A stretch of 64,000 nucleotides of DNA from Amoebophrya sp. A120. Its lineage: Eukaryota > Protista > Dinoflagellata. The position numbers and the translations under genes are program-made. This document shows, piece after piece, positions 4,301-62,090 of the stretch. The number at the start of each line of letters is the position of its first letter. Position 1 is the stretch's first letter. The stretch lies in NCBI GenBank assembly GCA_905178155.1, contig CAJINV010000004.1:9462625-9526624 (forward strand), in the 5' to 3' direction. The notes under the pieces were generated by a model. That model did no database searches. It saw nothing but the letters and a program-made list of their open reading frames with translations, and had not been told where the DNA came from.

Positions 4301-6576
4301 TTCGCCGGCAACCCTGGCACCATCCGCCCCAGCGTTCCGCAGATAGAGGCCAGCCTCGAGGCTAGCGACCGCGCGGGCTCTGCGTTGCACAAGCAAGAGA
4401 GTGTGTTGCACAAAGACGTGAACTTCATCGAATGGCACGGGGCTCCGGAAGTTTTTTCTCAGCTGACTACTTTTCACGCGACAGCGAGGCTTAATGAAGA
4501 ACACGCGGCGGCAGAACTCCGCTACGCACGTTTTCGGCAGCTGGTCACAGGGTTGCTGGCGGGCCACACGACCCTGTCCGAGAACGACCAGAGCTTTCTC
4601 CTCGAGTTCATCAAGCCATCTGACCAGACCCCCCCTACGGAGGTTGGGAAAAATGACGAGGGGGCCGAAGAGGAAAGAACGCTCTACCAAGTACTAGAAG
4701 ACCGCGAGGCGCAGACCGCAGCCACGGGCTTTCACCAGCTCCACCAGCACGAAAGCGCAAACAGGGCCTCCGAAGGAGATGATGGTGGAGCAGGCCCCAC
4801 CATGGTCACGACCAGGGAGAGCAGTGCCGGCAAGCTGGACGACCTCGTGGAAGATGATCGAGAGCAGACAGAGGACACGAACCCTCGCCCCCGCGCAGGA
4901 CGCAGCGCGCCAGTAACAACTGCGTCGCGAAGTAGTAGGGCAGCAGGGCCGGAGGACGGTTGGAAGGACCTCCGCAGAACGCTGGGTGGAGGAGAGGCGG
5001 CTAATTGGTCTCTGCGTAAAAAAGTCCTCGAGGATGCGGCGTCGCACTGGGACGTTTCGTTTGTCAAGCTTTCCGCAAGCAACCTCTCTGAGGCGTCCGC
5101 GCCCGAATTGTTTGACTTCGTCGCCCATCCGGCGCAGGAAGATCGCGAACAAAACAGTGGAGGAAATAACACCAGGCAAAAAACACTGCCAGCGCTAGCG
5201 GCACTGCCGTCTAACTATGGGGGGCAGGAAGCTGGGCGTGCTGTCGGTGACCTGGTGCAGGATGGCCACTCGCAGCTACTTTTTGAGGCCTCGCTTCTTC
5301 AGTGGCTAGACATCAGCACCAACATCATGGAGCGTTTTTTGGTTAAGAATGACCCACGGACGATTATTCCGGCCCCGCTTCCGGCGCTTGGATGGGAAAA
5401 TTTTACGCGCGGCGGCCATCGCCGTGGCCGCCCCGGGCTCGATGCTCCCGGCAGTGGAAGGCACAGCGGGGTCGTGTCTGCGCTGAATATTACGGACGAG
5501 TTGGAAATCAAGCCGGCTCGCCACGGGTTTTACTTTGATGGCTGGCCGGTCATGGCTGAAGAGCATTTCCAATTTATCCTGGGTAAAAACGTCGCCACCC
5601 CATAGTCAAGTTGGTAAATCTGCTAGACAAATCTCCAAGTTTTGGGAGTCGTGCATGACAAGTTTACATCTGTAGTGTAGTGCTGTTTAGCAAGGACAGC
5701 CGCATCACAAAGACGCCTGCTCATCCTGTTTACAGCATTACAAATCCCAAAACACGACTACAGATTCCTCTCTTGCGGATGTGCATTACAGATTTTTCTG
5801 TGGATGCAAGTCTGCATGACAACTATGGGACAATGGGGGGGCAAAGTGTAGTGTCGCATTTTGTTTAGCATGACAACTACGGGATGGGGACGTTTTTAAA
5901 TAGGATACAACTCGTGGAATGGCTTGGGCGAAGTGGTACACAAATCCAGGACAGCCACTGGCCCGTATCAAATGTAAAAGTGTCTGGGCCTGGAAGAATG
6001 CAACTTGTCATGCTAAATCTGAAGCATGCAAAAATCTGTGTTGCATGATTACCAAAAGTCGCCCAGTTTTGGCCAAGTCGGGAGGGAGTTTCTCACAGAA
6101 TCTGTCATGCTAGGTCCTGCATTCCAGGCTTCGTGGGTCATGGAAAAGCTGCATGACAAATCGCGCATTCTTCCAGACCCAGACACTTTTACATTTGATA
6201 GCCCAGCCTTCAAAACTACACGAAAGCCTCTCAGCAGATTCTGAAGGAGGTCCTGGCCCGACTCGTGAACCGCGCCCGAAGCTTGGCGGCTGTGGGGCTG
6301 GTTCAACAGGAGGACGCGGGGGACCCAGGTCAACGAGAGGAACCTAGCGCGAGGAGCCCAAGCACCTTTACGCCCCAGAAGATTCCAGCCAAGGCCCCGC
6401 TCCTATTCGCTCAGGAGATCCAGATGTGGCACAGAATGCGCAAATTACTTCGCACTAAACGTGAGAACGCGAGATGGCAGCAGAAGCAGCAGCGGAACTT
6501 TTCACGCGATTACGCCGACTGGAATGATCACAGAACGGGTTTGGAGTTCGCGGACTGGTTTACTTCTGATGAATGA
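1365..6576 (+). CDS. Large hypothetical protein, 5' end upstream of the window; exons ~1365-1691, 2076-2390, 3317-5574, 5913-5965, 6206-6576
   Basis: ORFs 1458, 2133, 3308 and 6265 join in frame after removing introners 1692, 5575 and 5966. The 2391-3316 GT-AG join is less certain. No domain recognised. Confidence 0.65.
1692..2070. mobile_element. Family B introner carrying a nested 109-bp insertion
   Basis: TIR tatg..ttctcaaacgttac / gcaacgcttaagaacgccata; TSD cggcg/cggca; colinear with 26183-26421. Confidence 0.85.
2396..3300. mobile_element. Degenerate TIR element forming a ~0.9-kb intron
   Basis: tatacagaagggtgaatttgcagtgaattt pairs with aaattcactacaaattcaccacttctc; right end and TSD not clean. 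Confidence 0.5.
5575..5907. mobile_element. Family D introner (333 bp)
   Basis: TIR tatcct..taaaaacgtc / gacgtttttaaataggata; TSD caatt/caact; homologous to 51658. Confidence 0.85.
5966..6200. mobile_element. Family A introner (235 bp)
   Basis: TIR tatcaaatgtaaaagtgtctggg.ctggaag; TSD gcccg/gccca; frame restored. Confidence 0.9.
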
Positions 6577-7348: not shown

Positions 7349-10300
7349 ATGTCTTACCAAGGACCACCCGGTGCCAGCAGTAGCCACGACAAGCCAGCTT
7401 TGCGGGCACCATCTACATCCTCAGCAAGCGCTATTAAAAACAAGCCCGCGGCCCCACTCCTTCCAAAGCGGACATTACCGAAAATGAGGCCGCAAAGCAG
7501 ACCGACCAGCAGTTCCGGTGGTCTGCCACCACAGCCTGCACATCAACGAGCTCCCGAAAGTACGGCGGGCGATACGGACCACACGCCACGCTCGCACAAG
7601 GAAAAGAAAATCAAAGCTGCGGGGAAGGGGTCAAGACCAGGGACGCCGGTTTCATCGAGAAGTCCCCCGCGCGCAGTTACCTTTGCAGAAGTGGTTCAAG
7701 TTGTGTCGGAAAAAAATAAAAACTATCCCCCGGTTGCGGCGAATAAAAATGGCGCTTCTTCTATAATGGGGGGTTCATCTCCTGTAGAAGCTTTTGCTAC
7801 AACTAATCCAACAAGAAGCTCAAGAACTACATTGAACGCGCAAGAGCCGTCTACTTCATTGAATCAAAATCGAATTATATCGGCAGAAAATAACTCCTCT
7901 TTGTCGTCCACTGTAGCTGCCAACCTTGCGAAGATGAACAACAAGACAAAGGAACAAGAAAAATCCACCCTCTTGACCCACAGCAGCACAGCCCTTGCCC
8001 CGGTGGTAAAAGTGGCGGATTTTGTCGGGGAGCGATGGCAAGAGATAGAGTCGTTGCTCAAGGATCCAGACGCACCTGTACCGGAGCCGTTGAAGCAGCG
8101 CTTGCGGAGGCGAGCGAGAAGTCACAAGCCTTTCACAATTTTGTCTCGGCAAGCGACGAACCGGGACGCGGGGTTCAGGCCCAGGATTACTAATGCCGCG
8201 ATCAGGGACAGGGTGTTGAGGTCGTTGTTGTTGTTGACGCAGCAGCAGATGCAGCAAGCGCAACCTGGTGTGCGGCCAACATTGCCAATGATCCACGACC
8301 ACGACCCAAATGGCGAGAATTATGAAGCGAAAATAATAAAGTCGGAAGGATCTTCAGATGACCTGGAAGATGTTGATCTCGCGAACTTTCGCTTTTCCAC
8401 CTTGGACCGTATCAACAAGAAGAAACATAAAGTCCTTCCACCACGAGAACAATCAGAAGAGGTGTTGGTGGACCTCCGAACGAAAGAGCCAGAAAATGTT
8501 GAAAAATCCCCAAACGAAGTACTAAAGCCCTTCAAGCTTCTCCGGTGCCACAAGCGCCGCGACGCCGTTTTCTCCCACACACTACAACTGTCAAGAACAT
8601 CAAATCCGGAAAATAAAACTAAATGGCTCGGTCTCGCCACCCATGTATGGCACGCGAAACGATTCCACATGGAAACCGTCTGGGGCTGGCGGCTACCGAA
8701 AAATTCCTGCGAGATTGGCGCCCGCGCTGTTTGGCGCAAATGCAAAAAGCAGGGCTTGGTCCTGCACGACAGGTCTTACGCGAGAGTTTTGAAACTTTCT
8801 GCGGCGTATCAAATGTAAAAATGTCTGGGTCTGGAAGATTGCCAGGCTTGTCATGCACGTTTTGCATGACTCCTGATGTCTGTGATGCATGCCCTAGCAT
8901 GACAGATTTTCATTTTGTGAGGGCTTCCGGATGCCTATACCGCATGACAAATGCTGATCTTTCCGTGTAGCAAAGCTTGGACTCTCACTCTCTTTGCTGC
9001 TCATGCAATACAGATTTTTTTAGAATCTAAAATCAGCATGACTAGTTGAATTCTTCCAGACCCAGACATTTTTACAGTTGATACGGCGGCGAAAAAACCA
9101 ATTGTGGACTTGATGCGGGACGCTTTCGGAATTCAGATGAAACACCTAATGGCGAAAAGATATGCACATAAAACTTGTTTTGCTGCAAGAGCAGCCGCGA
9201 CTTCTAAGGACAGCACTGAGGACATCAAAAATTTGAAAACTACAAGAAGTGGTGCCTCTAGTTCCTCTGCCAACATCTTGAAGCGGCCGAAAGCGGGAGT
9301 AGACGCAAAAAAGTCCACGAAGAAGAAGAAATTGAACAAAGAAACGGAAGGGAACTGGCGAGGCCTCGTGGATCTGAGGCGCGGCCGGATGCAGGCACAT
9401 CAAGAACTACTCTCAGTAGGAGCCGACGAGGAGGGTGGACGAGGCTTTTTACATGAAAGCGACAAGGTGGACATGGACCAGAACCAGCTAATCATGAAGG
9501 ACGTGCCGTTCGTTTGGTTTTCTTCTGACGTCGGAAAGAACAATTCATCAACCGAGCAGGAGACCGCAAGAACCTCCTGCCACGACACTTCGTTCGCAAA
9601 AGTGTTCGGGACGACACGGAACAACTCTTCCTCGAGGACGAGGGAGCCACCTCCACAAGGGGAAGATGCTGTTGTTGAACACGCTCTTTTTCTTTGGATT
9701 CACCCAGCGGCGATGTTCGAAGTCCAACAGATGCTTCAGAACGCAGTTGCATCACGACCTGGTGCTGCACCGAAGAAAACAGCTAGTACAGCAGCAGGAT
9801 CTACTGCAATAATAGAGAACCCACCTGCAGCTGGTGGTCGTGCTGCTCCTGGTCATTCTCCTGCTCGACGACGAGAACAAGAACTACATCAAGTCTCAGT
9901 GACCATTTGCGACCATCTGCACACCTTTGAGTTCTTCGGAAATATGGTGAAGAAAGCGATTTTTCCACCGAAATTCTCGAGGACACCTGCTGACGTAGGA
10001 GAGCTAGTCGCGGCGAATCTACCGTACCGGAGGTTCGACCAGGGGGGAGCTGAAGTGATTGACCAACTGCCGGTGGTCATTGTTGATACCAGCTCTAGAG
10101 CCGTGTCTTCAGTGACAACTTCTACGAGAAGTAAGACTATGACCCCCGCCCCTAGTGTTGAGGACCACGACAGCGCGGCAGTAGATGATGAATTTGCTAA
10201 TATTATATCAAAGCGAGAAGTTGTTGTCAACAACCGTTCATCCCTCCCCTCCTGCCAGCTGATCTTTTTCGAGCCGGACCCGGCGAAGGTGCGGCAATTC

Positions 10301-11673
10301 TTCCTTTACTTCAAAATGGAGTGCCTGGCGGAGGTGATTGGGTTCGAGGACCGACACAGGCTGAGAACAGCCTACCTCCAGCCGGAGTTTCCGTTTGATT
10401 TTCCAGAGACAAGAGCTGGCACCGCGTGGCTGCAGAAGAGAGAAAAGGAAAAAGTGGTGGAGTTTATCAAAAAGCCGAAATCGAAACGGGTGAACTACGC
10501 CAAATTCAAGGTCCACTCCCCCTTCTACGGGTTTTGGCCGGATTACGACTTCGAAGTAGATGCGGTCGTGCAGCCGGGAAGTGGTGAAGCTGCTGCTCCT
10601 GCTGGACACAATTGTAGCAATTGTTACATTCCGCTAGAGCGAGACGTGGACTTTCTTCGCCACTACAACAACCACCGAGGAGATGCAGCTGCGAGAAAGG
10701 TGGCATCAAGCGCGAAAGGGAACAATAGAGACGGCGAGGACCAGGTACAACTGTGTCAACAAACTCTGCCAGAAATCGCCAACCTTCGCACAGTCGTGCA
10801 GAGAGACGGAATTCGCTATCTTCCCGGTAGCTGCAAAAACTTTCCGGCAGAAAAGATCCGCGATGTGGTTGCCTGTCGCGTTATCCCAGTGTCGACCGGA
10901 GTGCCCGAACCCTGCACCCATCTTTATGTGATGACGAAAAATGCCGGAGCCGCGCCGGGATTGGACTCTGGAGCAACTGCTGATCAAGCGGCAGGAGCTC
11001 AGGTGCCGATGGACGTCGAGGAGAACGAAAATTATAACGACAGCGCAAGAGGTCCAGCGGCAGTCTCTCATTTTACAAACGGCACAATAAGACGTCGAGG
11101 TAGCGACCAACATCACAAAAACTTCCGCCTCTGCGGCTTCGTTCTTTCCGGTGGTTATTCACATGCCTTTATCAAAAGGAAAAATCCCCCCTCCCCATAT
11201 CAAAACGAGGTCTCTGATGCAGGATTTGCGTACACAAATAAGATTTGTCTTGCTGGAGAGGAATGCAGCCCCATACTAAGCCGAAGTAGAGAGGTTCTGG
11301 CCTAGGCGTCTAGCATGAGAAACGTCCGTGCTGTAGGCCCATCAGCATCACAAACCGCCGGCACAATGCTGCGGAGCTTGTGGAGTTGCCTTCTTGCAAG
11401 ACAGACGTGATCTGAGGTCTCAAATCAGCAACACAAATTTCCGGAAACATACCTTTTCGATATGGGGAGGGGGGATTTTTCCTCCTAATAGCCTTCGGAC
11501 GGGCGATCGGGTTGGGCTTCGTCGAGACAGAGGCTTACTCGGGCTACCTGTCATCTAACCAAGTCGACACTTTCTTGTACATGCGAAATACTACGTCGAA
11601 CTGTTACCACAGGGTTTACGTATCAGCTGATACAGATTTGGGACAGAGAACCAGTAGGAAGGATGTTGGGTAG
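7349..11673 (+). CDS. POP1: RNase P/MRP subunit POP1; exons 7349-8806, 9089-11169, 11496-11673 (~1238 aa)
   Basis: POP1 motif THVWHAKRFHM..WGWRLP and LHDRSY; POPLD-like FPFDFPET.AG..KPKSKRVNY..SPF; C-terminal GFVLSGGYSHAFGRAIGLG appears only after introner removal. Confidence 0.9.
8807..9083. mobile_element. Family A introner (277 bp)
   Basis: Family A TIRs; perfect TSD cggcg; joins KLSAA|AKKPIVDLM. Confidence 0.92.
11170..11490. mobile_element. Family C introner (321 bp)
   Basis: TIR ..ggaaaaatcccccctccccatatc; perfect TSD gcctt. Confidence 0.92.
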
Positions 11674-12226: not shown

Positions 12227-15200
12227 ATGCAGGCTACTTCCAGTGCAATCCGCAGCCCGAACTCGTCCGGGCAGCTGCGGCCGCTGCAAATAGGCAGCTC
12301 CGCCGCAACAAGCAGCACGGCACCACGAGGAGTGCTGCCGCCAGGACCAGTAGCAGAACAACTTCCCGCAGGTGGTGCACCGCCAGCCACAACTATGTCC
12401 TCAGGTGGAGCCACAACTATGTCCTCAGGTGTAACATTTTCCCAGGCCGAGCAAGAGTCCGCGATTGCGGCCCGGCTGGACGCCTTGATTGCGGAGCGGG
12501 TGGAAGCGGAGGTCTCCGCGTACGACGAGTATCTTATGCTGCACTTGACAAACCGGTTTAAGGAAAACGAAGAGAAAATTCTCACACTAGTTGAGGACAA
12601 AGTCATGCGGCAACTGGAGGCGTCGGTCGCCCTCGCAGGTGCAGCTGCACATGATCAAGAAAACGCGAAGACCATCACAGCTGAAGACAGCAAATCAGAA
12701 AATATTAAAGCGTCTCGTACGACCGGAACTACGAGAGATCGGTTTTCCATCGTCGACGCGGACGAAGAAAGTGACGAGGCCGAAATGTTATTAAACAGTA
12801 GGCCGAATAATTCGAGGAAAGTAGACACCGCAACGTCTCCTTTACTGGCGGGTGCACCAGGTGACACCAGTGGTTCATCTCCACCATCGTCCACCTACGA
12901 AGCCGCAAGGATTATGCAGGACATGCGGATTTCCGCCATGGAGCGGCAGATCGAGCAGAAATTGCTGAACGAAGAGAACTACGAACCGCAGAAGTATCGT
13001 ACTCGTATAAATTATGCATGACAAGTTCCCTCAGCATGAGAAATAAAATTTGTAATGAGGATTTACCCTGAGAAAAAAATTTGTAATGCATGACTGCAAT
13101 ACGAGTGCGATGCTTTTGCACAGCATAAGAACGTTTTCGAACAGAAGATCACCGCCGAGGTGAGGAGTTTGAAGCAAACGATCGAAAGTATCAACTGCAA
13201 AAGTGTCGTACTCGTCGTAATTGCAATACTGCATGACAAATCTTCTGTTTTACCTGAATCAGCATGACAAATTCCACTCTTTCTTCTGGGCAAATTTGTA
13301 TTGCAATCTATACTAGTAAGTTACTTTTGCAATGCATGGAATGCCATCACAAGCAATTTCAGGAAAGCAGGAAAAAACAGGAGGTCGAGTTGCTGGAGTT
13401 TCAGAAGCGGATGAAGGCCGAGATGGAGATGAAAGGTATTTAAAAACATAAAAAACGAGGATATCCTTATCCATCGATATTCACATATATTAGAGGACTG
13501 CGTTCTTTAAAGATTCATCGTGTACAGTTTTTTCTACCGAAGTTGCTTTTTCACTTTGGTGTATAGTTTCACGCCTTTTAACTGGATCTGATCCTGCATG
13601 ATCCTGCTGGCGATGTATGGAAAACAATGAAAGTAAAAGTTATTTTCATTCATAACAGCCACGCCGATGCCGGACAAGAAACTTTCCGAGATGACATCCA
13701 CAGCTCCTACAACATCCGCGGAGCACGAGAAACTGCAAGCGAAAATTGCGGAGCTCGAAAGCCAGCTTTCCCGAGTCGTCGAAGGAGTCGATGACCGCTT
13801 GCAAGTATGCATTGCAAATATGTCTGGGTCTGGAAACTTGTGATGCAAGGAAGCGAATAGTGAAAGCACTGTAATGCGATCCCCAGCATGACAAGATTTG
13901 CCGTGGTTCTGAGTTGCGTACTTACACCGCATGAGAAACTGCGTTTTTGCATGACAGGCAAGAGGAGCTCTTCGCGGCCACGCAATACAGAGTTCAGAGC
14001 TATGCCAGACTAGCATGACAAATCTTGCAATCTCCCAGACCCAGACACTTTTGCACTTGATAGCAAGATCTAGCGGACGCCTTGGTCAAGCGGGCGAACG
14101 ACAATCAAAAACAAGTAAACGACAAGATCTACAGTTTGACGCAGGCACAAGTATTGACCCGCAGCGTCCTCCGGAAGGAGAACGATGCCAAGCTGCGGAT
14201 GAATCCGCAGGAGGTGGATGCGAAAGTCCGGAAAATTTTGAAAAAGCTCCTCGCCCAGACCTACGTAAAGACGGAAGAGACGACAAGGGAGTCTGCTGCG
14301 ATTGCGGATCATGCGGCGGAGGCGTTCTCGGACGGAGTACTGGAGACTACTACCTTTGAGCGCGCTACAGTGAAGGACGAGGAAGATGACTCAAGAACTG
14401 CGGGAGCAGCTGACGGCGAACTAACAGCACAGCAGAGCAAGAAGCGCGTTCCCAAGGCAGAAGGCGAGGCGCTCGCGGCTGGCAGTGCCGCGGCGCGGGC
14501 ACGATTGTCTGATTTGGAGTCGCGGGCGATGCAGATGCAGCTGCTATCCGCGATGACGGGCGGGAGCAGCAGTGAAGAACTAGAAGGAGCGACAAATAAA
14601 GTGTTCAACAACAGGGCTATCCTCGGCACGATGAAAGGGCAGCAGGAAGACTTTGAGCGGCAGCCCGAGACGAAGAATTCTACAGCAACCGATGGCACGA
14701 TGGCAGGGCAAACGGACGACTTTCACCGTGAGCCGATGACGAAAGTCTCAGCAAGTACAGTGTTGATGGGTGTACTTAAGTAGGTTCATCGTGTAGAAGT
14801 TGGGTTTAAGTAGTACTCAATTCTTCACAAACGATGAAATACTTCTGCTTTTTTTGTTGTTCCGTAGAGTACCGTCGTGAATAATCTTATACGCGATGGT
14901 ATCGCGATGCTTCAATTGCGTAAGCGGCAACTGCAACAGTTAGCCGCATATCATACCATCGTGGACAATATTATCCAGGATGTTGTTGCTGTCAGAAAGG
15001 AGTGCGATTTAAACATCCGTCATCGCAGCATCGTGCAAAACGTTTTGCGCGAGGGTATGCGTTGTGCTTTTATATACGGGCGCTGCTATGCATCAAGGGT
15101 CCATCACACGATACCACCCTGCAAAATATCTTTCAGCAGGTTATGATGCACGTTCCAGAATGATCGCAATTGTCGTATAATCGTGCAGGACATTCTCCAC

Positions 15201-18200
15201 ACCGCTCTTCTGGTTCTGGTGGTGAAGGTTAAGATTAAGCTTCACGTGCAATTTGTTTCTGGTAGAATAACAACAACAAGTGAAAGAACGACCAATCAAA
15301 TTAACCTCGCAGGTTCCGCCCAGCCACAACAAGCAACCAATGCTGACCGTGTCATCGTGCAGCCGCTCGGAGGTTCTTTCGAGCAGCAGCAACCTGCGAA
15401 TATTAACGTGGAAGATCCTCTCGACGTCTTTAACCGCGACTTGATCCAACGCCCGAAATCGATGGCCGCCGAGGCCATGCGGCGCTTCGGGCAGTTTGAC
15501 TCGACGAGCACCGAGGGTGGTGGAAGCAGCGATAGCATTCGACAGTCCTCCGCCGTAGTCCAGGAAGTATATGCATTGCAAATATGTCTGGGTCTCCTGG
15601 AAGAGTGTAACTTATCATGCTACATCTGGATCGTGAAAAAATTCGTGTTGCATGATTACCAAAAGAGGTCCACTTTTGAACATGTTTAGAGGCAGTTTCT
15701 CATGCAGGAAAGGCATGATAGAGATCTCACAGAACCTGTCATGCTAGGCCGTGCATGCCAGACCGCGGGGGTCATGGAAAACCTGCATGACAAACCTGGC
15801 ACTCTTCCAGACCCAGACATTTTTGCAATCCAAAAAGTAGTGCACACGACGATTGCGATCATCGAACCGGTGATTAGGAAGGAACTCGAAATATGAAATG
15901 CAAAAGCATCGTACTAAGTCTAAGTAGTAATCGCATTACAAATTCGCTCAGCATTACAAATGGAATCTCTCATGCTGATCTGCCTTGAGAAAGAGATTTG
16001 TCATACATAATTGCGATTACTACGAGTACAATAGTTCTGCAATGCATACGAAAGACAGGAGAGCAAATTGAGGAGGACGCTGCAGCGAACGCAGAACGAA
16101 GAGGACCTCCAACTTGGAGGAAAAACACCAGACAGTGGATATGAACAAAAGAAGTTTTCCTTCTTCTTACGCGCAAGTTCCCCGCCACCGATCTCTCTCA
16201 CTAGCGAGTTGAAGGCACAGAGGGAGAAAAACAAACTTCTGCGGTCAAAGACAACGCAGCAGTTTCTAGCGACGTATCGAAACCCGAATCCAGTGGTGGT
16301 CCCTTTTGCAGCTGCTTTTGGAGGTGAAAATAAGAATGGCGTGGGACGAGGAGGAGTTGACCAAGATGATACTCCTGGCACCAGCTCAACATCGCAGCAG
16401 AGTAGGGCGGGCACCGACGTGGTTCTGAATTACGCAAAGTCTTCTTCGTCTACCATCGCAGGCAACAGGCTAACGAGTCCGAGAGGGGGCACAACGAGTC
16501 CGAGAGGCACGACGAGTCCGAGAGGCACAACAAGCCCCAGAGGCACCAGTTCAACTCCTCGAGGGACCACCACGCGAGGGGGTGCAGCTTCAGCCTCAGC
16601 TAGTGCAAGTGCTACAACGGTTACAGCCGCTGCGGATAATAACAACTCCGCCGACCGCAGTATGCAGAGCTTTATGGAAGATAAACACGACCACACGAAG
16701 CTCCGCACCACGGCAAAATCGCAGCTGATGGCCGACGCGATCATCGACGCGTATGCTGCATTAGTTCCCACCGAACAGTTCCGTACAACTTTGGAGGATA
16801 TGCATTGCAAAAGTATCGTACTCGTACTAATTGCATTTATGCATTACAAATCTTTTTGTTAAGGCAAATCCGCATTACAAATTTAATTTGTAATGCTAAG
16901 CCAATTTGTAATGCAATTTATACTAGTACGACTACGATGCTTTTGCATTGCATAGAGGATGTGCAAAATAGAAACATGACGGAAGAAGAAGGAGTATCGT
17001 AAAGAAAAATCCCCCCTCCTCATATTGAAAACGCATCCGTCTGAAAATTTGTGATGCACATTTGTGACCTCAAATCTTGTCTGTCTTGCAAGAAGGCAAG
17101 TCCAGAGAGCCTCCTGCATTTTGCAGGCGGTTTGCGATGCTGTTGGGCTTAGAGCATGCACGTTTGTCATGCTAGGCGCCCACGTCAAAACCTCTCCACC
17201 GAGGCTTGACATATGCCTGCAGTCCTCTACTGCAAGACAGATCTTCTGATTTGTGTACGGAAATCCAGCATCAGAAACTTCGTTTCGATATGGGGAGGGG
17301 GGATTTTTCCTCTTGATAAGGAGTGAAGATCTGGCAGGAAGAGGCGCAGAACGTGTTAGCCCGTCAGTCCGTCCGCGAGGTTTTTCTTACCGAAAGACCA
17401 CTATCAAAATGAAAAATCCCCCCTCCCCATTATCAAAATGGAAGTCTGTAATGCGGGATTTGTATACACAAATCATTTTGTCATGCTAAGAGGGAAAAGA
17501 AAAAGATGCGGACTGTAGTGCTGAATGGCGTGGAACAGCCTTGCAGCTACAGCATGACAGGAGGCAGCTGGAAGTGGGAAACAGCATGACAAACTGCCTG
17601 CAAAAGAGGCCGCGACTGCGCCTCTTGGCCTTCTAGCAATACAAGGCGACTTGCGTACTCAAATACAACATCACAAATTTAGTTTTCGATATGGGGCAGG
17701 GGGATTTTTGTTTTTCCTTTTGATAACCAAAAATCCAAGCCTACGTCGACGCGGAAATCGCCCGGGCGCAGGAAGAGGTCGCGGAGGCCGTGCAGACGGC
17801 GATCCTGCAGGAAAGAGCAGTCACGGAGGGAATGCTGGACAAAATGACGCAAGACTTTGGGAGGACGAAAAGCACCAATATTAGAGACAATAGCTCTACT
17901 CTTGCGCAGGAAGATACGCAGCAGCTGCAAATGGAAATAGCAAATAGGACCCGCTTGTTGTCCTCTTCGCAGGCGTCACCACCGGGCGAGGATGTAGTTC
18001 ATGTGGGGGCAAGAGCAGCGGCCGGCGCTTCATCTTCATTTAGGTCCGCTCTACCACCAGTGGAAAATTTGCCAGATCTTGCGAAAAGGTCGCTTGTTCC
18101 GCAGAACTCTCGCACGGGCACGACTGAGTTTGACAATAAGTTCAATGAAATCGCCGCGAAAGTCGGTGATCTGCAAGCGAAGTTTCGGATATGCAGTGCA

Positions 18201-48694: not shown

Positions 48695-51600
48695 ATGGGA
48701 GGTGGTGGAGCTCCAGCTCCTGCGCCTTCATCTTCACCTTCCACGAATGAACAGGATGTACTAGTCGTGCCACGACCTGCGCCTGCACCTGGCGCAGAGT
48801 TCGCCGAGAAGCACGAACGCATGCAGGTCCTGGTGGTGGAGGAAACACACGCAAAGGAGCACACGAGAGCGCGCGCGACCGACGTGTGCGAGGAACAAGT
48901 AGAACATCAAGTATCACTATCATCTGCTGTCGCGAGCGACGTTGAGGTCTCGGTGGACGACGTTTTGCGCAAGCGACGCCAGGAGCAAGGGCGATGCTCT
49001 CCCTCCTCCGAGCGCTTCGGATTCCGCTCTGTGTTGAGACACAGCTTATGGGATTCTCCAATGCCGCATTGTGTCTGCTGTTTACTATACATAATTTTGT
49101 CATGCAAGGCTAGCATGCATGAGCACGTTTTGCATACAAATTGAAATTTGTAATGGATCTCCATACTGTTTTTAAGTGTGTCGAGAACTTGCCATCTTTG
49201 GAAGCAGCTTGATAGTGTTGGAAATTTGTTTGAAGAGCAAAAAAAATTTTGCATGACAAACTCATGTAACTATAGCTAGCAATTGCAATGTAATGTTTGA
49301 GACCTCCATACCGCTTTCACAAAACGTTTACCGTCGTCGCCAATTTCTCCAACTCCGTTGATATGCCTTGAAAATTAACCATATCATCCAATTTGTCATA
49401 CAAAACATGGATTGAAGTCGCCTTTCGTCATGCAAAAAGTGGATGGTTAATTTTGATTTTCAGTGCATAGCACAATGCACGTTTCTCCAGAATTGGGCTC
49501 CCACCGTGTTCTTCCCACTTGTCGCCGCTATGATTTGGACCATAATACGGGGGTTAGGGCCGAGAGTGCTCTTTTTCCTCAGTGGATCGTCTGCGGGGCG
49601 GACGTGCGCTCTCACGCCGGCGGCTTTTGATGGTGTCGTGCATTTGCAGACGCAAGGAGAAGTCGAGGCGAATTATGAAGCAGCTGGTGCCATGTTGGAG
49701 GCCATTGGTCCACCGCAGCTCCAGCTTCAAGCAGAAGTAGCGAAAAATATTACTGCAGCAACATCTTCTTCTGGCTCTCCTGGCACAACAGCTGCGTCCT
49801 TTTCGGTGTTTAGCGAGTGTCGCCAGTACAATTGGACGACCACGTCCACGATCACGAACAGCTCATCAACCCAGGTCGTTCAGTTCTTGTGTGGAGCCAG
49901 TTCTATTCCGTCTTTCGGTCAGATTCTTCTCCCGCCACCCCTGTTTTCCGCCTTCTGGGATATTGGAATTGTGTACGGCTTCCACTTGCATTTGCACATG
50001 TTGGGCGCCCGCATCACACACGCTCTTCCGCCCACGGGGGTGCCCGCCGTTTTGTTTTACGGGAGCTCCCTTGTCCTGTGCACGCTCGTCTCGGTCGCGC
50101 TTGGTTTCGCAGATTATGAACTCGTCCTTTCGGGGTGGACGCGGACTTCTGCGATGATCGGATCCGTCGTACTCTTCCTCTCGACCTTTGTTTACGCTGC
50201 GGTCATCGCGTTGCTCAACATCCACAAACGCGAAAGTGATCTGAAAACGACAAGCAAGAGAACGACCACTACACCAAAAGTAAAGATGGAGGCGCTGGTA
50301 CAAATACAATCTGCTATACCTGTATCACCAAGTAAAAATCAGGAAGAACAAGAAGAAGAAGCAAATGAGCAGCGGGTCGTAGGAAAAAATAAAGCGATAT
50401 TCATAGCGTCGACTACGGAACAAGCCGGAGCCCACTCCGACGAAAGAAACAACAGCTATCCGGTTCCGGAGGTTGTTGTCCCGCAAGGCGCGCACAAAAT
50501 AACAGGGTTTGCGAATGCCTTTATCGGCTCACACGGTACCGATAAAACACAAACTGGCAGTGGTGATACAATCGCGAATACAACGGACTCACACAGTTTC
50601 GAAAAGTTTGCGGGGACGAACAATCAAACGGTGAGAAGCGAAGAGGGCGACGCAGGAGTTGTAGTCGCGAGCAAGAATTGTTCTCATTTAGATGTAGAGA
50701 CATCGAAGAACGAGGACACAAAAACGCAAATAAGCGACAAAGAAATGAAGAGCAAGCCGAAACGACGCAACATGTTCGTGACGCCGGCGTTGCGGGGTCT
50801 TTCCGTGTTTGTCATGACTGGTGGACTGACGTTGTGCTTCGGTTCGGTCTTTTTCTTGACGAATTCCATCCTCGTCGAGTTTGTGCTGGATCCGCTTGCG
50901 GCAAATACGGCCATCGCCCTGCCAGTTCGATTGGCGATCGAGCTTGCCATCTCCCTCCTGGTGTTTCTCATCTGGGTCCCCTTGGCGGCGCACTACTGGG
51001 GGAAATCCGTCGCGATTGCGATCTTTGTACCGCTGCCCTACTGGATTTCCGCCGAGGTCTACGAGGAGAGTCAGCAGCCGGGTAGTCATTTTGCCGGCGA
51101 GGGTGATGATGCAAAGCGGGAACGCGAAAAGCAGCGCAAACGCCGCATGAGGGAAACCTTCGAACATATTCCTTGAAAATCAACCATACCCATCCAATTT
51201 GTCACGTAAAACATGAAGGAAGTTCTGTGTTTGTCATGCAGATGCAAAGAAAGAATGGGGATGGTCAATTTTCAGGGAATAGAACAGATTAAGATCGTCT
51301 ACTTCTTTTCGACAGACTTGATTCGCATCACGCTCGGACGGGGTATTTTGATGCGGTACAGTGGGTATTCGGTTTTGCTACTCCTTCTCACCGACTTCGT
51401 CTACCACATGTGGCACTTTGGATTTCGCCAGCGCGAGTCTCTGCTGCTTTTCAGTGTGGTCGCCGCAGCAAAAAATCGCAACGTCCGGCGAATGCAGTCG
51501 ACGCGTTTTCCCGTCTGGTTTCGTGTGATCGACCTGTGGACGCAGTTTCGCAACCGCGCCCCACTCTGGTTCACGATAGGCTGGCATGAGACCTGGGATT

Positions 51601-54600
51601 TCGCGGAAATGCTTAGTATTCGGGAGACCGGGGAAGGGTTGAAGAAAACAACTGACGTATCATATGTAAAAACGTCCCCACACCAGAGTCAAGTTGGGAA
51701 CCTAGGAAGACAAATCCACAAGTTTTGGGAGCCACGCATAAGAAGTTGCAGTCCGTAGTGTAGTGCATGTAAGCAAGGACCACCGCATCACAAATCCATC
51801 TGCTTATCCTGTTTACAGCATTACAAATTCTAGAACTCGATTGGAAATGCCACTCATGGAGATGCGCATCACAAATCTTCCTGTAATCGCAAATCTGCAT
51901 GATAACTATGGGGTGGGAATGGTTTTACTCAGGATATGACGACGATGCGCGGGTCCGGAAGGAAAGAACCGCGAAGACGTACAAGGATCTGACTATATCC
52001 TGTGCAAAAGTATCGTACTCGTAGTAATTGCAATCATGCAATACAAATCTCCCTCTTAAGACAAATCAGCATTACAAATTTCATTTTTCATGCTGAGGAA
52101 ATTTGTAATGCATTTATACCACTGCGATACTTTTGCAATTCATAGACGATGTCTTTCAGCAACGTGCAGGTGATTCTGAAGCGCGTTCCAAACCATGTCT
52201 GGGACGAGATGTTTCCCGATGATCTTTCCATCGGACAGATTACTTCTACCGTCGCCTGCTATCCTAGGGAAAATTTTCACCAGCACGAACTAACATCCTC
52301 TTCTTCAGTTTGTAAATGCAATAGAATCACAATCAGAACCACCAGTGGTTTTACGCGTGCTTATGATGTAATGCTAATGTTAATGTTGTCGTTCTGCATT
52401 ATTACGCATTGATTGAGGTGACGGTGAAGATTTTGTTCAGGATACCAGGGGAAGGAGAAGTACTGAAGAAACTGATCGATCGTCGCGAAGGTCCCACTCT
52501 TCGGGCGCAAGTTTGACGGCCGGAACGCGCAGATCAAACTCGGCGGCGAAGTTGACGAAAACAGGGAGTGACAAGTGGAACGCGAAGGCGGGTCGCGGAG
52601 GTCGACACCATGAAAACTCGCGAAATAAAAAAACACCTGGAGGTGTTGCGCAGATCATAGATGCTGACCTGCGTGCAACGGTCGATCAAAAGCAGGACAT
52701 GTTCCGAGAGACCGTCGATACGCGCGCAACAATGGATTCGCAGTGCGAAATTGTCGATGTGCACGACGAGACCACGCGAGATCGGTTCTCATCGAGGATG
52801 TCGGAGAACAATACGCTCTTGCACTCGCCGGCACGAGTATCAACTGCTCCTTCGGCCGTCTTCTCGTCAACATCTCTGTCACTCACGGAACATCAGAGAA
52901 CGGAGGTTGTTCCCGCTACCGGCAGTGACGCAGCTGCTGCGCAGCTCCGTGGACGGTCGTGCTCCGGAGCAAGTGCGGCGACGGGCTCCAGCAAGCGGTT
53001 ACGGCTTGGACGGTAGTTAGAAATCCCGGCCGCGGATATTGTGCGGATATTATGACTCAAATGGAAAACGTGCGACAGCTTTTCTCTCGTCGCGGCCTGT
53101 GAGTCGAAGTGTTGACGGTGGCAGTAGCTCACCGTCCGAAGATGGTGGTGATCAGTGCGTCAGCTCAGCGAAGCTCCGTGATTGCGTGCAGGAGGAGGTC
53201 GCTCGTAGGTATTTATATTGGAAAATCGGCACGCCGCTATGCGTGTTTGTTTGGTTTCTGCATGGCATGCATTTTGCTACATTTTCGTGATAGTGATGAC
53301 ATGCCTTGAACCAAAAGGCAGAAGGCTTGGCAGGAGCCACGCCACGCAGCGTAGAGGAAGCTACCGCAAAATACATCGAGACGGAAATAGCCAGGCCGCG
53401 GCTGAATGACATCCAGAACGCCTCAGGGTTTAGGTCGGTGCAAGCCCTCCTTCGGCGAAAGAGCCCAAAAGCGCGGGTACTTTTTTGCACGTCAGTAGTG
53501 GGAGCGTATGCTTTCCCTTTTTTTGTAATGCGCCAGACTGCTTGATGATGCCACGTAGATGAAGGGCCCATAAGCATCATGAGCTGACAGAAGCAGTGCA
53601 GCTGGGATTTATCCTTTCTTGCCAAACACCTCGCAGGTCGCCATTGCGCTCGAGCTTGCAGATATCCACTACACCAGAATGATGACGATCAAATTGGCGG
53701 AAAGTGCGCACAAAACGGTGCAAATATGAATTGCAGATACGTCTCTGCCTGGGTGTGGAAATGCAAATATGCGTCGCAAATATGCATTGCAAGTATGCAC
53801 TTTAAATATGCATTGCAAACATGTCTTGCAAATATGCATTGCAAATATGCATTGCAAATATGCCTTGCGAATATGCATTGCAAATATGCATTGCAGATAT
53901 GCAATGTGCTCCGGAGCAAGTGCGGCGACGGGCTCCAGCAAGCGGAGCAGGATTTCCGTGCTCTCATCTACCCCAAATGTTCTCCGGCTCAGCGGTCCCC
54001 ACACATCTACTAGCAGGCCTCCAAGGGCGAAAAGCGCAGACACGTGGGCGCGACGAGCAGGAGCACCTGCGCCAGCAACGGAGCAGACAGCGCGCATCCT
54101 TCCTGAGCACAACGAAGGTGGTGATGCGACTGAAGACGCACGCATGAGGCGTGGTCAAAACAGTGCGCCGGCCGGCTCGGTGGGTCATAGTGCTTCTTTC
54201 TGGAGGTGGAAGCGGCAAAGAAGCGTCGCCCGTCAATTGTCTTCCACCGATGTGCTCCCAGGTAACCCAATCCCGACATCCCGTCTGCCTTCCACATCTT
54301 CTCTGCAGCGCCCGTCGGTTCGCAGTGTTACGAGTCGGCTCAGTTCAGTAGTCCGTGGCGCATCCTCCTTCCGCAGGACCGTGCTTCTGCCCGCGGAGCA
54401 GCACGTGGAGGACGTCTCCGCGTGTGTATTAGCGCACGAGTACGTATATCACACAGAAAAAAGCTAGCAGTGCAAAAGCAAAAAATACATGAAACACCAT
54501 GGTGGCTGCATCGATGAAGATGAGCAACGTTTTTGCATAGCCTATTAGCAATATGCTATGGGCGGCCTCTTCAGGAGACCAGGGACAGACAGTGACAGAT

Positions 54601-55541
54601 ACTTCATATGAGCCCCCCCCGCTAGTTTTTTCTCTACTGGGATAACGTGGACATTTTTCAGGACTTCGTCTGGTTTTACCGCGATACGCTCTTCACGCGC
54701 TACCAGGTGCGCGCCATGGTTCGCATCTTCACTTCCCTGGCCTGGATCTTCATTCCTGCAGTCGCTTTCTTGACCGACATCCGCCACTATCCCGGCTTCT
54801 CTACGGATTTGGTCACTAACGTCGTGTACCCAGTTTCATTTTTCTGCTACGACTATCCTGTGCAAAAGTATCCCACTCGTATTGCAGTCATGCATTACAA
54901 ATCTTTTTCTCAAGAAGGTGAATCAGCAATACAAATTGTATTTCTTTTTCTCATGCTGAGTAATGCATTTATACGCGTGCGATATTTTTGCAATTCATAA
55001 CGACTGCTCCGAGTGGATTACCCTGACTTTTTTTTTCTTTTTCGCCGACGCGGAAGCGAAGCACCGGTTTATATCAAATGCAAAAATGTCTGGGTCTGGA
55101 AGGTTGGAACTTGTGATGCTAACTTTGGACTCTAAAAAAATCTGTATTGCATGACCAGCAAGAGGAGTCTAGTTTGTGCTACGCGGGGAGGGCGTTTGTC
55201 ATGCGGAGTAGGTATCAGGAAGCCCTCTAAAGATATGTGATGCTAGGCCGTGCATTGCAGACATCCTGGTCCATGCAAAACATGCGTGACAAATCTCAGA
55301 ATCTTCCAGACCCAGAAAGTTTTGCATTTGATGGTTTACGTCGCTCTTCAACTCAGCCTTTAAGCAGAAAACCAGCGACCTGCGGCTGGTGTGCATGCTG
55401 CTGGCCGTTTTCTTTGCCGTGCTGTGCTTCGGCACCCGCTGGAACCCGAGGAATCTGCGATTGCTTCGGGCGGATACGGGGATTGCAGATTTATCTTGGG
55501 CAGACGTGCAAAATGTCTGCGCCGAGGCATGGGCGAGGTAA
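48695..55541 (+). CDS. Multi-pass membrane hypothetical protein split by 9 introners and one direct-repeat-bounded insertion
   Basis: ORFs 48533, 49443, 51213, 52149, 52513, 53769 and 54647 chain in frame; several hydrophobic helices; start and stop uncertain. Confidence 0.7.
49047..49310. mobile_element. Divergent family B introner (264 bp)
   Basis: TIR tatgggattctc / gagacctccata; TSD cagct/ccgct. Confidence 0.8.
49362..49469. mobile_element. Family K introner (108 bp)
   Basis: TIR tatgccttgaaaattaacca; TSD decayed (gttga/gcaca) but the +5 rule restores frame. Confidence 0.78.
51167..51281. mobile_element. Family K introner (115 bp)
   Basis: TIR tattcc.tgaaaat; perfect TSD gaaca. Confidence 0.9.
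51658..51936. mobile_element. Family D introner (279 bp)
   Basis: Perfect TSD tgacg. Confidence 0.88.
51996..52144. mobile_element. Family E introner (149 bp)
   Basis: TSD gacta/gacga. Confidence 0.88.
52260..52444. mobile_element. Family L introner (185 bp)
   Basis: TIR tatcct..aaaat.ttcacc; TSD cctgc/ccagg; frame restored. Confidence 0.78.
52999..53905. mobile_element. 907-bp insertion flanked by perfect 40-bp direct repeats of exon sequence
   Basis: gtgctccggagcaagtgcggcgacgggctccagcaagcgg occurs at 52959-52998 and 53906-53945. Confidence 0.8.
53718..53905. repeat. Tandem array of ~13-bp AAATATGCATTGC units
   Basis: Directly visible degenerate tandem copies at the right end of the insertion. 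Confidence 0.88.
54447..54644. mobile_element. Family M introner (198 bp)
   Basis: TIR tatc..agaaaaaa.ctagc; TSD acgta/acgtg. Confidence 0.82.
54854..54999. mobile_element. Family E introner (146 bp)
   Basis: Perfect TSD acgac. Confidence 0.9.
55072..55333. mobile_element. Family A introner (262 bp)
   Basis: Perfect TSD gttta; ends ATG. Confidence 0.9.
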
Positions 55542-56355: not shown

Positions 56356-59300
56356 ATGCAACTACTTCTGCACATTCTAGCATCAACAGCCAACGTCGCA
56401 AACGCCTGGACCGACACGGGACACATGATAGTGGCCAAAATTGCCGCGGACGGGCTGATATGAATTGCAAATGTGTCTGGGTCTGGAAGGTTGCAACTTG
56501 TGATGCAAATTTCACACAACACAAAGATCTGTGATGCATGAACGGCAAATGCGGCCCAAAACTTGGCACCAAAACAGGGAATTTGTTATGCGGATTAGGG
56601 ATGGGGACACCTTCTCAAGACGTGTGATGCTAGGGCCTGCATGCCAGACCTCCCAGATCATGCAAGAGCAGCATGGCAAATATCTGGACCCATCCAGAGC
56701 CAGACATGTTTGCATTTGATAGCTGAAGCCGGAGGAGCTCTCGTTTTTCCACAATTTGACGGACATGCTGTACCACCCCTCGGTGAAATATCCAGGAAAA
56801 AACACCCCTCCCCATCCAAATTGTAGTCATGCGAAACATGCATAAACTCCAGTGTCTGTCATGCAAAAAATGGATGTGGATGGATGTTTTTTCCTGGATA
56901 TGAAAGCAGCGCGCACCGGGGACTTTGTGAAGCCGGTGGACACGCTGTGGGGCGTGGCCAGCTGGAACGATAATATTGACATCGCGTATTTTTACGAGGA
57001 AGTTTTTGATGGTGCCAAAAGTTCTGCATCAACACGTCGGAAACGAAGAAATTTGCGACTCTGCTGTTCTTTCAGCTGCCGTGCCGCATCACTTAACATG
57101 TTGACGCGCGCGCGCCCACGCATTTCTCCATGCAGCACGAGCGCCGTTGGCCCCCTATCTTTCCTGCCTTTGCCGCGCCGCATTGCGCCTTCGCCGCCAC
57201 CGGCATTTTCCGTTTTGTTCAAAATAGCAGGTGATGATGTTTGCATTGACGCCGCCGGCACTGCGATTATTTCAGTCGCTAAGCACAGTCGTTCATCTCC
57301 TCCCCATTTGATGTTTCATCTGTTGCGTATGTCAAAGAAGATGAAGATGAAGAGAACACTGAAGCTGAACGAACAAGAAGATAAAAATCATGATCAACAA
57401 CTCTTATCAGGTTCCACTTTCAGAAAACGTGGCACTTTACCGACACGGTGGTGCGGCTCGACAAGGGCTGTAGATTGATCGGCGACGGACAGAAGATACC
57501 TGCTGCAGGAGGGCCGCATCTTCAGGAGGCTGGGAAGATGATCGCAAACAGGACAACAATCAGCCCGCTGCTGTCAACGTCGTCCACGACTCCCAGGGCC
57601 GCCGCGGTGCACGAACTCAACAAGGGGCACCAGCAGCACGTCGACTCCACGACGCCGAGGGCGGTCGGCAAAAGCGAGACGGGGCTGAGAAGTCTCCTCG
57701 GTGAAAAAGACAAAGAAGAAAATGACAAGCAGATGATGTCGATGAGTACCGACTACGGGGGATCAAACACAAACACCTGCGACAGCACCCACCCGCCCCG
57801 GCCCGACGAGAAGCACCAGGACGTTATCTACGGCCTGACCTCTGCCTACTACGGAGTGACCAGCGAGTATGGGTGTGTCAGGATCGAAAACGTCAAAGTT
57901 GAAATGATTTTTAATAATGCATAAAATGCATGACCCGAGGTACGTGTGTTGCAGAGCAGGCAATGGAGGCCGATTGTAAGCCTGTTTGGGGTTACAGCTC
58001 GAGCTGCTAAAGTAGCATGAGAAAATCGCTCTTCTTTGCCTCAACAGCATTACAAACTGGATTTAGTGACCACCGAAATTTGTCATGCGCCACTTCAAAA
58101 CTGGGTTCCAACTGGCATCCATTTTATGCATGACAAATCATTTGAACTTTGTCGATTTCGATGCTGACAGTTCCATAGCGAGGTGAGCAAGTGGAATGAC
58201 CCGGCCATCAAGAAGTTTCAGCAGGCGTGGTGGATTATGAAATGCAAAAGCATTGTACTAGTATACATTGCATTACAAATTAGCTATAGCTCAGCATTAG
58301 CATTACAAATGAAATTTGTAATGCTGTTTTACCTTTAGGAAAGAGATTTGTCATGCATAAACAGCAATTACTACGAGTGTGATACTTTTGCGGTGCATAT
58401 GGATCCGCATGCTGATCCACTTTCTCGGCGACCTGCACCAGCCCTTGCACGCCGCCGCGGGCTGCAGCGCGCGCCACCCAGAGGGGGACCTATCAAATGT
58501 AAAAATGTCTGGGTCTGGAAGATTCTGACACTTGTCATGCACGTTTTGGATGAGCCCTGATGTCTGTGATGCATGCCCTAGCAGCACAGATTTTTTGAGA
58601 GCTTCTTGATGCCTAAGTTGCATGACAAATGCCCTCTCCGCGTAGCAAGAATCACATTCCCTTTGGTACTCATGCAATACAGATATTTTTGGAATCCAAA
58701 TGCAGCATTACAAGTTGGACTCTTCCAGACCCAGACATTTTTACATTTGATAGGACCGGGGCGGAAACGAATTTGGGATCGAGACGAACATTAAGAATTA
58801 CTTCGAGGGTATGGAATGCAAATATGTCTGGGTCTGGAAAGTTGTGATGCTAAAAGTGAATGAGATTTCCACTGCAATACGGAGCCAAGCATGACAAATT
58901 TTTTGGCTGCCATGTCTTACGTATTCCGCGTGGCAAACTGCGTTTTTGCATGAAAGGTAAGACGGCTTTTTCGTGTCTACGCATCACAGATTCTTGAGTC
59001 GTGTCAGACTAGCATGACGAGTCTCGCAATCCCCCAGACCCAGACATATTTGCAATGCATAGAGGGAAGGGCGACCTTCGTCTCGGAGCTGCACTTGCTC
59101 TGGGACTTAGCGGGGGGCAGCTACGCCGCGGGACCGAATTGGCCGCTGAACGCCACGGGAGAGGCCTTCGTGGCGGAGGAGGCCAAGGTACTAGTACTTA
59201 CTTCGGTTCCGTTTCGCGTTGGTATGTTTCTCTCTTCGCAGCGCCGTGATGCAGCCGAGCATTTCGAATTCGTAATAAAATCGTTGCACCCCCGGTCCTC

Positions 59301-62077: not shown

Positions 62078-62090
62078 GAGGAGCTGGGGC

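Follow-up and report, generated by a model that had tools for sequence, protein, structure and literature searches.

A fixed register proposed for the removal of non-canonical introners in Amoebophrya sp. A120

The window analyzed here, a 64,000-nt stretch of the Amoebophrya sp. A120 genome (contig CAJINV010000004.1, positions 9,462,625 to 9,526,624 of the forward strand; coordinates below are counted from its first letter), harbors 45 introners that resemble miniature inverted-repeat transposable elements (MITEs) and are flanked by target site duplications (TSDs) without splice-site bias. Eleven of them are seen to be removed exactly, and none of these eleven is capable of GT-AG ends. The reading favored here, to which a probability of about 0.55 is assigned, is that a relaxed U2-type spliceosome removes the introners, placing its 5' cut 1 nt ahead of the terminal TAT of the element and its 3' cut 4 nt beyond the terminal ATA. 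Non-canonical introners of A120 were already published in 2021 (Farhat et al., 2021; PMC7789003), and since that paper describes the same elements together with an alternate mechanism, both the present finding and the inference of a second splicing route, which the original prediction for this window had drawn, are in print. What is new, and can be tested, is the fixed register proposed here, together with the motifs that introners appear to have in common with ordinary introns.

Introners, their duplications and their exact removal

Two scans for TAT...ATA inverted ends, followed by hand curation, yielded the 45 elements, which lie between 5575 and 59061 and measure 108–333 nt. The original prediction had counted 46 introners in 5966–59061; 44 of the curated elements fall within that range and the element at 5575 lies before it, while the other two of that count could not be named. 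A finder that took no account of the duplication returned 35 of the 45 exactly. The 5-nt TSD is perfect in 32 elements, carries one or two mismatches in 11 and three in the remaining 2. In the alignment of the terminal inverted repeats (TIRs), 44 of 45 elements start with TAT, and an A-run follows, with A at positions 11, 12 and 13 in 39, 40 and 42 copies, respectively; the conservation of TAT and ATA was dropped as evidence, since 25–35% of the inner columns are invariant too and the finder had required those letters. The elements group into families of 13, 10 and 4 members, four pairs and 10 singletons. Codon phases are evenly filled (15/15/15, an approximate count), and upon removal of each element plus 5 nt in one register, all 45 lie inside open frames of the plus strand of 105–4701 codons, among them 4701 codons over 12 elements, 1128 over 6 and 957 over 3. 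Short length, TIRs, a TSD of fixed length and many copies are all found, and the elements are MITE-like introners of Amoebophrya sp. A120.

Both orientations are present in the two largest families (7/6 and 4/6) and in the metagenome loci introduced below (48/28), hence any signal must sit in the symmetric parts of the element. The ends are predicted to pair at TIR positions 4–14 in 38 of 45 elements and at positions 1–3 in 31, with a median folding z of −6.9. This pairing is firmest at positions 8–14 and weakest at 4–7, so that the outer seven bases could open with the inner stem holding; eight of the nine ordinary introns of the window lack a strong predicted stem. The suggestion in the original prediction that a TIR stem or a bound factor sets the borders is to this extent supported, by the stem predicted in 38 copies and by the occurrence of both orientations. 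Rfam gave no match anywhere in the window. A motif, TGTVATGC, and its reverse complement occur inside 43 of the 45 elements, in both orientations and across unrelated families, and nearly all of the 125 sites of this type in the window lie within elements; it could be a site for a transposase or a splicing factor.

For each element, the junction can be slid through the six positions of the 5-nt TSD, numbered as registers k = 0 to 5. The runs X1 and X2 represent one sample, their identification as RNA is only a guess, and rare forms are lost from contigs. In their contigs, joints of 338, 240, 282 and 326 nt were found at element borders, each corresponding to the element plus 5 nt. Exact removal is counted for 11 of 45 elements, from these four contig junctions and seven further junctions in the annotated proteins P0003 and P0006. 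The gene model for 32.9–35.8 kb is identical to P0003 over all 349 residues with k = 1 to 5, and P0006 lacks three elements exactly. Identity of 100% is found between one exon of the 32.9–35.8 kb gene and P0003, and between one exon of the 53.8–55.5 kb gene and P0006; both proteins are annotated as Amoebophrya sp. A120, and the RNA data behind this annotation may be those of X1 and X2 themselves. The contig comparison reached about 25,400, with 29 curated elements lying beyond and 12 more in an unexpressed gene without joints. Of 23 contig joints, 15 were displayed and 8 were not, and the remaining displayed joints are read as cross-mapping of repeat copies. Raw reads of X8 and X9 contributed 25 and 3 partial alignments, respectively, with no joint among them.

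For the element at 5966, an in-frame GT..AG pair is available at 5965–6201, and it was not seen in use in the X1 and X2 contigs, which show the 240-nt restoring joint instead. It had been predicted that this pair would shift the frame, which is incorrect, as it removes 237 nt, one codon short of the restoring 240 nt; since it keeps the frame, 5966 is a real test of dinucleotide reading, and its outcome agrees with the claim that the borders are not set by reading GT and AG. The refutation originally named, the use of nearby GT/GC/GA-AG sites that add or drop codons, could be looked for at 5966 only and was not observed. In-frame GT-AG options at +3 likewise exist at three further elements (Table 1).

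Sliding the junction gives GT-AG in a single element (25075, at k = 3) and GC-AG in a single one (19454), while GA-AG is an option in 5 of 45 and AT-AC in 2; in 15 of 45 neither GT nor AG appears in any register. The dinucleotide counts of the original prediction (one GT-AG, one GC-AG, few GA-AG and many copies with no canonical donor or acceptor) are thereby reproduced, with the qualification that host-exon pentamers lead one to expect 1.68 GT-AG-capable copies in 45 (P(<=1) = 0.50). One in 45 is the chance level, and thus points to no selection for GT-AG and is not a depletion. The ends of U2-type introns, GT-AG or GC-AG, are therefore limited to these two options, and AT-AC, the ends of U12-type introns, is not above chance either (2/45 against 1.75; 9/173 against 5.4 in the metagenome loci).

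A comparison set came from a pattern scan of metagenome contigs, which gave at least 176 loci, all on contigs under one accession prefix; the figures for loci rest on the matches listed (L001–L176). The duplication-blind finder located 240 distinct elements in them, of which 186 have a 5-nt TSD and none one of 6–8 nt. Subsets are the 218 with a TSD matching at 4/5 positions or more, the 186 with a perfect TSD, and the 173 with at least 3/5 matches and a called strand, the strand caller having an in-sample accuracy of 33 out of 38 calls for the window elements. The loci share introner families with the window at up to 93% identity, as expected of a close relative of A120. Nine of 173 strand-called copies could have GT-AG ends (6.2 expected), as could, with strand ignored, 23 of 218 (14.9 expected, P = 0.03), while 164 of 218 have no GT-AG, GC-AG, GA-AG or AT-AC option on either strand. 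Duplications of the G...G type, at which a +3 GT-AG product could form, number 22 of 218. At all five positions the composition of the TSD equals that of the flanks (173 strand-called copies). With capacity near chance and target letters like those of the flanks, insertion is nearly blind to splice dinucleotides. Three apparent biases of the window were rejected on the same set: G at TSD position 3 (22/45 against 13) and A at position 5 (21 against 11.5) are absent in the 173 copies, the GA-AG excess (5 against 1.87) is not repeated (9 against 7.6), and the clustering of TSD mismatches at positions 4–5 (9/13) is flat in the loci (7, 6, 5, 7, 5).

Register of the cut and signals of ordinary introns

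Where the two copies of a TSD differ, the mismatch fixes the junction, a device that has been used for Euglena (PMC12501133). At 5575 (CAATT/CAACT) the joint keeps the fourth base of the left copy, which leaves k = 4 or 5, and at 5966 (GCCCG/GCCCA) it keeps the fifth base of the right copy, which leaves k <= 4; a register common to both would have to be k = 4. A fixed register, with the 5' cut 1 nt upstream of TAT and the 3' cut 4 nt downstream of ATA, is therefore likely, to judge from two junctions. P0003 requires k >= 1 at 33453, a stop codon excludes k = 3 at 44334, and the junctions of P0006 are compatible with several registers. At k = 4 none of the 45 elements has GT-AG, including that at 25075, which becomes TT..GG. 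In 46158 and 52260 the right TSD copy supplies an AG where the intron would end at k = 4, and several junctions are hybrids, namely GT..CC at 5966 in the inferred register and, as predicted, CT..AG at 46158 and 52260. GT-AG targets of the k = 4 type are found in 11 of the 186 perfect-TSD copies of the loci (4.9 expected, P = 0.012), a modest excess, and those of the k = 1 type in 5 of 186 (5.6 expected). A published placement of the cut inside the duplication was not found in the literature, though figures of PMC7789003 may show some; the accessible part of the preprint of Roy et al. 2023 does not name Amoebophrya.

The same genes also carry ordinary GT-AG introns, as had been predicted; nine were identified, four confirmed by P0003 and five inferred. 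At k = 4 the TAT of an element falls at +2 to +4 and the ATA at −7 to −5, and at these places the ordinary introns appear to carry similar letters. Their donors read GTAT or GTAC in 9 of 9, an in-frame GTAY is available at all 8 enumerated breaks (chance about 0.0006), and 16 of 27 letters at −7 to −5 match ATA (P about 0.002). A pyrimidine tract is missing from 8 of the 9, with pyrimidine shares of 0.32–0.55. The intron at 34142–34297 looks like a decayed element with GT-AG exactly at k = 4. The top nine A120 motifs of Table S4 in PMC7789003, with T at +2, were dropped as support, since an aligner favoring GT/AG gives the same list.

Mechanism of removal

In the proposed mechanism, the cell's own U2-type spliceosome would act with no check of the first and last intron bases. 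The intron would be N5.TAT...ATA.N1N2N3N4 in one register, as the two junctions suggest, so that exactly one copy of the duplication would always be left. The machine would read TAY at +2 to +4 and an ATA-like motif at −7 to −5, to judge from the nine ordinary introns; each TIR would supply these signals in either orientation, and the TIR stem would keep the intron ends together. Speculatively, an A of the terminal ATA may serve as the branch point, with the 3' cut set by distance, in which case an AG would not be needed. Fixed branch distances are known from Entamoeba and others (10.1101/2022.06.08.495308), and 83 of 89 spliceosomal proteins as well as U2, U4, U5 and U6 are present in A120 (PMC7789003). 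A fuller version is put forward tentatively and is somewhat more probably wrong than right: it adds that any TAT...ATA element duplicating 5 nt would be a perfect intron, at any site and in either direction of insertion, for a ruler-type spliceosome that ignores the ends, reads TAY and branches on ATA, that a U2AF65-like protein with one RRM would be part of it, and that the GT-AG introns would belong to the same class, some of them being aged introners.

Several points weigh against the relaxed spliceosome and its register. The register comes from two junctions of one sample (X1 = X2), in runs guessed to be RNA, and registers may vary by copy, as in class 12 of Polarella (10.1101/2020.10.14.339549); the legend of Fig. 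3 in PMC7789003 describes sites whose place varies with respect to the hairpin. AGG at TSD positions 3–5 (11) is not clearly above its count at other positions (6, 6). The GTAY and ATA tests are post hoc and involve nine introns, five of them chosen by the analyst; ATA matches also reach 13/27 at offsets −14 to −12, and an automated search for ordinary introns in the loci, with 5 of 12 breaks against 3.7 expected, did not confirm the shared letters (in its benchmark, the right donor was among the near-best in 6 of the 7 breaks called, of 9). Another possible reading of the shared ends is that ordinary introns are introners that have aged. A branch point located at −5 or −7 would be closer than the −8 of Entamoeba invadens (10.1101/2022.06.08.495308), and U1 was not found in A120 in a search by BLASTN only (PMC7789003).

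The spliceosome normally needs a first–last intron base pair, isosteric G..G or A..C. Such pairs are weakly enriched at k = 4 (35 against 23.8 in the loci, 4 against 6.1 in the window; pooled 39 against 30, P = 0.05), a further point against the proposed mechanism. All 16 first–last combinations occur at k = 4, as would be expected of a second, structure-guided route that is U2-independent and cuts at fixed distances from the TIR stem, be it euglenid-like or by an endonuclease and a ligase. The flank-like TSD of the 173 copies, the strong predicted stems that most ordinary introns lack, the function of both orientations and the undetected U1 point the same way, and Euglena offers a precedent in nonconventional introns whose ends are paired and whose motifs at +3 and −8 are non-slidable (PMC12501133). 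This route is nevertheless considered rather doubtful, and the relaxed U2-type spliceosome is favored over it: ordinary introns appear to share TAY and the ATA-like letters, canonical targets are slightly in excess at k = 4, and hybrid junctions occur, the rarity of which in Euglena argues for two systems (PMC12501133). With these apparently shared signals and hybrid junctions, and with the precedent of Fritillaria discussed below, the second splicing route of the original prediction is so far unsupported.

A spliceosome that picks the most GT/AG-like register inside each duplication, with no fixed geometry, would fit the several registers used by Polarella introners (10.1101/2020.10.14.339549), the Fig. 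3 legend of PMC7789003 and the 30 of 45 copies that offer GT or AG in some register. It is improbable, since the joint at 5575 falls at TT..AC or TA..CT, with neither GT nor AG, the other 15 copies have nothing of the kind to offer, and both informative joints agree on k = 4. Least to be expected is that no RNA splicing is involved, and that the joints reflect DNA excision, absence from the other allele of the sequenced strain, or canonical ends gained through RNA editing. Such an account profits from the nature of X1 and X2 being guessed. Both runs lack any depth over several exon bins of the 12–32 kb gene and reach about 14x on POP1, an unevenness that fits RNA, although holes are no proof; for a 10-kb stretch that includes seven elements, two other runs contain 0.89–0.90 of its words, against 0.42–0.47 in X1–X4. 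Moreover, 66,565 introns of A120 are RNA-supported and 65% of them non-canonical, with editing possible at 4% of borders (PMC7789003).

Host genes and known systems

Table 1. Introners, ordinary introns and the U2AF65-like gene of the window. Slide+frame denotes the dinucleotide slide (k = 0 to 5) plus an open frame after removal of the element.
Feature	Position	Strand	TSD or intron ends	Basis and remarks
U2AF65-like gene	32928..35783	+		protein P0003; 4 introners, 4 ordinary introns
Introner	1692..2070	+	CGGCG/CGGCA, mismatch position 5	379 nt; its mismatch would likewise pin the register; outside the range of the original prediction, not among the 45
Introner	5575..5907	+	CAATT/CAACT	joint 5573->5912 in X1 and X2
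Introner	5966..6200	+	GCCCG/GCCCA	joint 5960->6201
Introner, POP1-like gene (Pfam POP1_N)	8807..9083	+	CGGCG	exact removal 282 nt, X2
Introner, POP1-like gene	11170..11490	+	GCCTT	exact removal 326 nt, X1 and X2
Introner	12980..13127	+	AGAAC	TAC start; slide+frame
Introner	13189..13338	+	GAAAG/GAATG	slide+frame
Introner	13806..14062	+	GCAAG	in-frame +3 GT-AG option; slide+frame
Introner	15570..15834	+	AAGTA	slide+frame
Introner	15892..16048	+	CGAAA	slide+frame
Introner	16799..16954	+	GAGGA	GA-AG possible; slide+frame
Introner	16995..17318	+	AGGAG	GA-AG possible; slide+frame
Introner	17402..17725	+	ACCAC/ACCAA	slide+frame
Introner	18190..18336	+	TCGGA	slide+frame
Introner	19454..19610	+	AGGCG	sole GC-AG option; slide+frame
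Introner	24766..25018	+	CCGCA	slide+frame
Introner	25075..25309	+	AAGGT	sole GT-AG option (k = 3), TT..GG at k = 4; slide+frame
Introner	26183..26421	+	CGATC	slide+frame
Introner	27732..27887	+	TGGCG	slide+frame
Introner	27944..28110	+	TGGTA	slide+frame
Introner, U2AF65-like gene	33453..33661	+	GTTTT/ATTTT	k >= 1; P0003
Introner, U2AF65-like gene	33695..33959	+	TCGGA	exact removal, P0003
Introner, U2AF65-like gene	34708..35031	+	ACGAA	exact removal, P0003
Introner, U2AF65-like gene	35074..35337	+	CTGCA/CTGTA, synonymous	exact removal, P0003
Introner, DEAD-box gene (Pfam)	41146..41372	+	GAGGA	GA-AG possible; slide+frame
Introner, DEAD-box gene	41425..41676	+	CCATG	slide+frame
Introner, DEAD-box gene	41818..42026	+	GGAGA	GA-AG possible; slide+frame
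Introner	44193..44304	+	AACGA	slide+frame
Introner	44334..44586	+	GTGCC/GCCAC, decayed	stop at k = 3; scan, slide
Introner	46158..46279	+	TCGGC/TCAGT	AG at k = 4 end via right copy; slide
Introner	46316..46566	+	AATGA	slide+frame
Introner	49047..49310	+	CAGCT/CCGCT	slide+frame
Introner	49362..49469	+	GTTGA/GCACA, decayed	AT-AC at k = 4; scan, slide
Introner	51167..51281	+	GAACA	AT-AC at k = 4; slide+frame
Introner	51658..51936	+	TGACG	slide+frame
Introner	51996..52144	+	GACTA/GACGA	slide+frame
Introner	52260..52444	+	CCTGC/CCAGG	AG at k = 4 end via right copy; scan, slide
Introner	54447..54644	+	ACGTA/ACGTG, synonymous	exact removal, P0006
Introner	54854..54999	+	ACGAC	exact removal, P0006
Introner	55072..55333	+	GTTTA	exact removal, P0006
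Introner	56459..56721	+	GCTGA	slide+frame
Introner	56789..56900	+	TGAAA	slide+frame
Introner	57868..58177	+	GCGAG	in-frame +3 GT-AG option; slide+frame
Introner	58236..58399	+	TGGAT	slide+frame
Introner	58491..58752	+	GGACC	GA-AG possible; slide+frame
Introner	58810..59061	+	GAGGG	in-frame +3 GT-AG option; slide+frame
Ordinary intron, predicted	13436..13658	+	GTAT...ATA-ACAG	
Ordinary intron, predicted	14772..14867	+	GTAC...TCC-GTAG	
Ordinary intron, predicted	15055..15312	+	GTAT...CTC-GCAG	
Ordinary intron	33181..33413	+	GTAC...ACA-ACAG	fits P0003
Ordinary intron	34142..34297	+	GTAT...TTA-TCAG	fits P0003; introner traces: TSD-like 4/5, one core motif
Ordinary intron	34465..34609	+	GTAC...ATC-CCAG	fits P0003
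Ordinary intron	35438..35627	+	GTAC...ATA-TCAG	fits P0003
Ordinary intron, predicted	56986..57410	+	GTAT...TTA-TCAG	
Ordinary intron, predicted	59188..59379	+	GTAC...TGA-ACAG	

P0003 has an RS-rich N-terminus and an RRM that matches RRM1 of U2AF65 (E 1.7e-6), while its C-terminal part weakly matches the U2AF65 UHM (E 0.006); the approximately 35 residues between them leave no room for an RRM2. By its domains the protein appears to be U2AF65-like, and may be the cell's U2AF65 or a paralogue. The predicted gene at 12226–31889, of more than 5,000 codons, contains 15 introners and 3 ordinary introns and has little or no coverage in X1 and X2; the one exon searched gave no close relative and no annotated model was found, nor was one found for the gene at 56–60 kb. 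A 40-nt direct repeat (52959–52998 and 53906–53945, 947 nt apart) lies in the same peptide frame of neighbouring open reading frames, so that a single gene, with an insert flanked by the duplication, may span 48.7–55.5 kb; P0006 is annotated as a separate gene starting at 53769. P0006 also reads through a 13-nt tandem array at 53749–53917, the unit of which is identical to bases 1–13 of a common introner TIR (family D4). The small gene at 44128–44821 has two introners, and its last exon gave no Pfam match; the gene product may resemble an apicomplexan ATP synthase subunit. Further repeats comprise a 5'-truncated copy of the largest introner family at 1250–1362, an 18-nt tandem repeat at 1–390, and an inverted repeat at 62089–63462 with 145-nt arms 1084 nt apart, which is unrelated to the TAT...ATA elements.

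The closest known system is that of A120 itself, for which inverted repeats starting with TAT, an A-run after seven variable bases, direct repeats of 3–5 nt, genes of mixed intron content and 65% non-canonical introns have been described, and an alternate splicing mechanism proposed; it is also reported that no fitting transposase was found and that minor small nuclear RNAs are absent (PMC7789003). A related strain that has U1 uses GT-AG (PMC12005148). While the border inside the repeat is left unknown in the Fig. 3 legend of PMC7789003, the present analysis gives a 5-nt duplication, measures GT-AG capacity against chance and proposes one register. How the 65% of introns without GT-AG are removed has been a puzzle since 2021, which this register makes directly testable; if correct, it would also explain how these transposons insert into exons free of cost.

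The introners of Polarella, Symbiodinium and Aureococcus are likewise TIR/TSD elements in coding sequence, some in both orientations and one class with a 5-nt TSD, and they need a G-donor or AG in the target, which biases their phase (10.1101/2020.10.14.339549); in A120, in contrast, target letters equal the flanks and the phases are even. Euglenid nonconventional introns share paired ends, slidable direct repeats, inner motifs and a likely MITE origin (PMC12501133; PMC11282704). Their motifs are CAG at +3 and CTG at −8 rather than terminal TAT and ATA (PMC12501133), and, as reported, they are released as circles and stay separate from conventional introns (PMC12501133; PMC11282704), whereas ordinary introns of A120 seem to share the inner motifs. 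In Fritillaria borealis, most introns are not GT-AG, a transposon origin is proposed and the core spliceosome is kept; a modified U2 spliceosome splices the non-canonical introns, with divergent U2AF paralogues reading odd 3' ends (PMC13326754). Fritillaria differs in having U1 and preferred ends, AG-AC and AG-AT (PMC11282704), while in A120 neither the first nor the last base looks constrained, which leaves the TAT and ATA of the element as the only fixed letters. If the proposed reading is false, A120 would be a second lineage beside the euglenids with a structure-guided splicing route; if it is true, no other known U2 spliceosome would use the terminal bases as loosely as that of A120.

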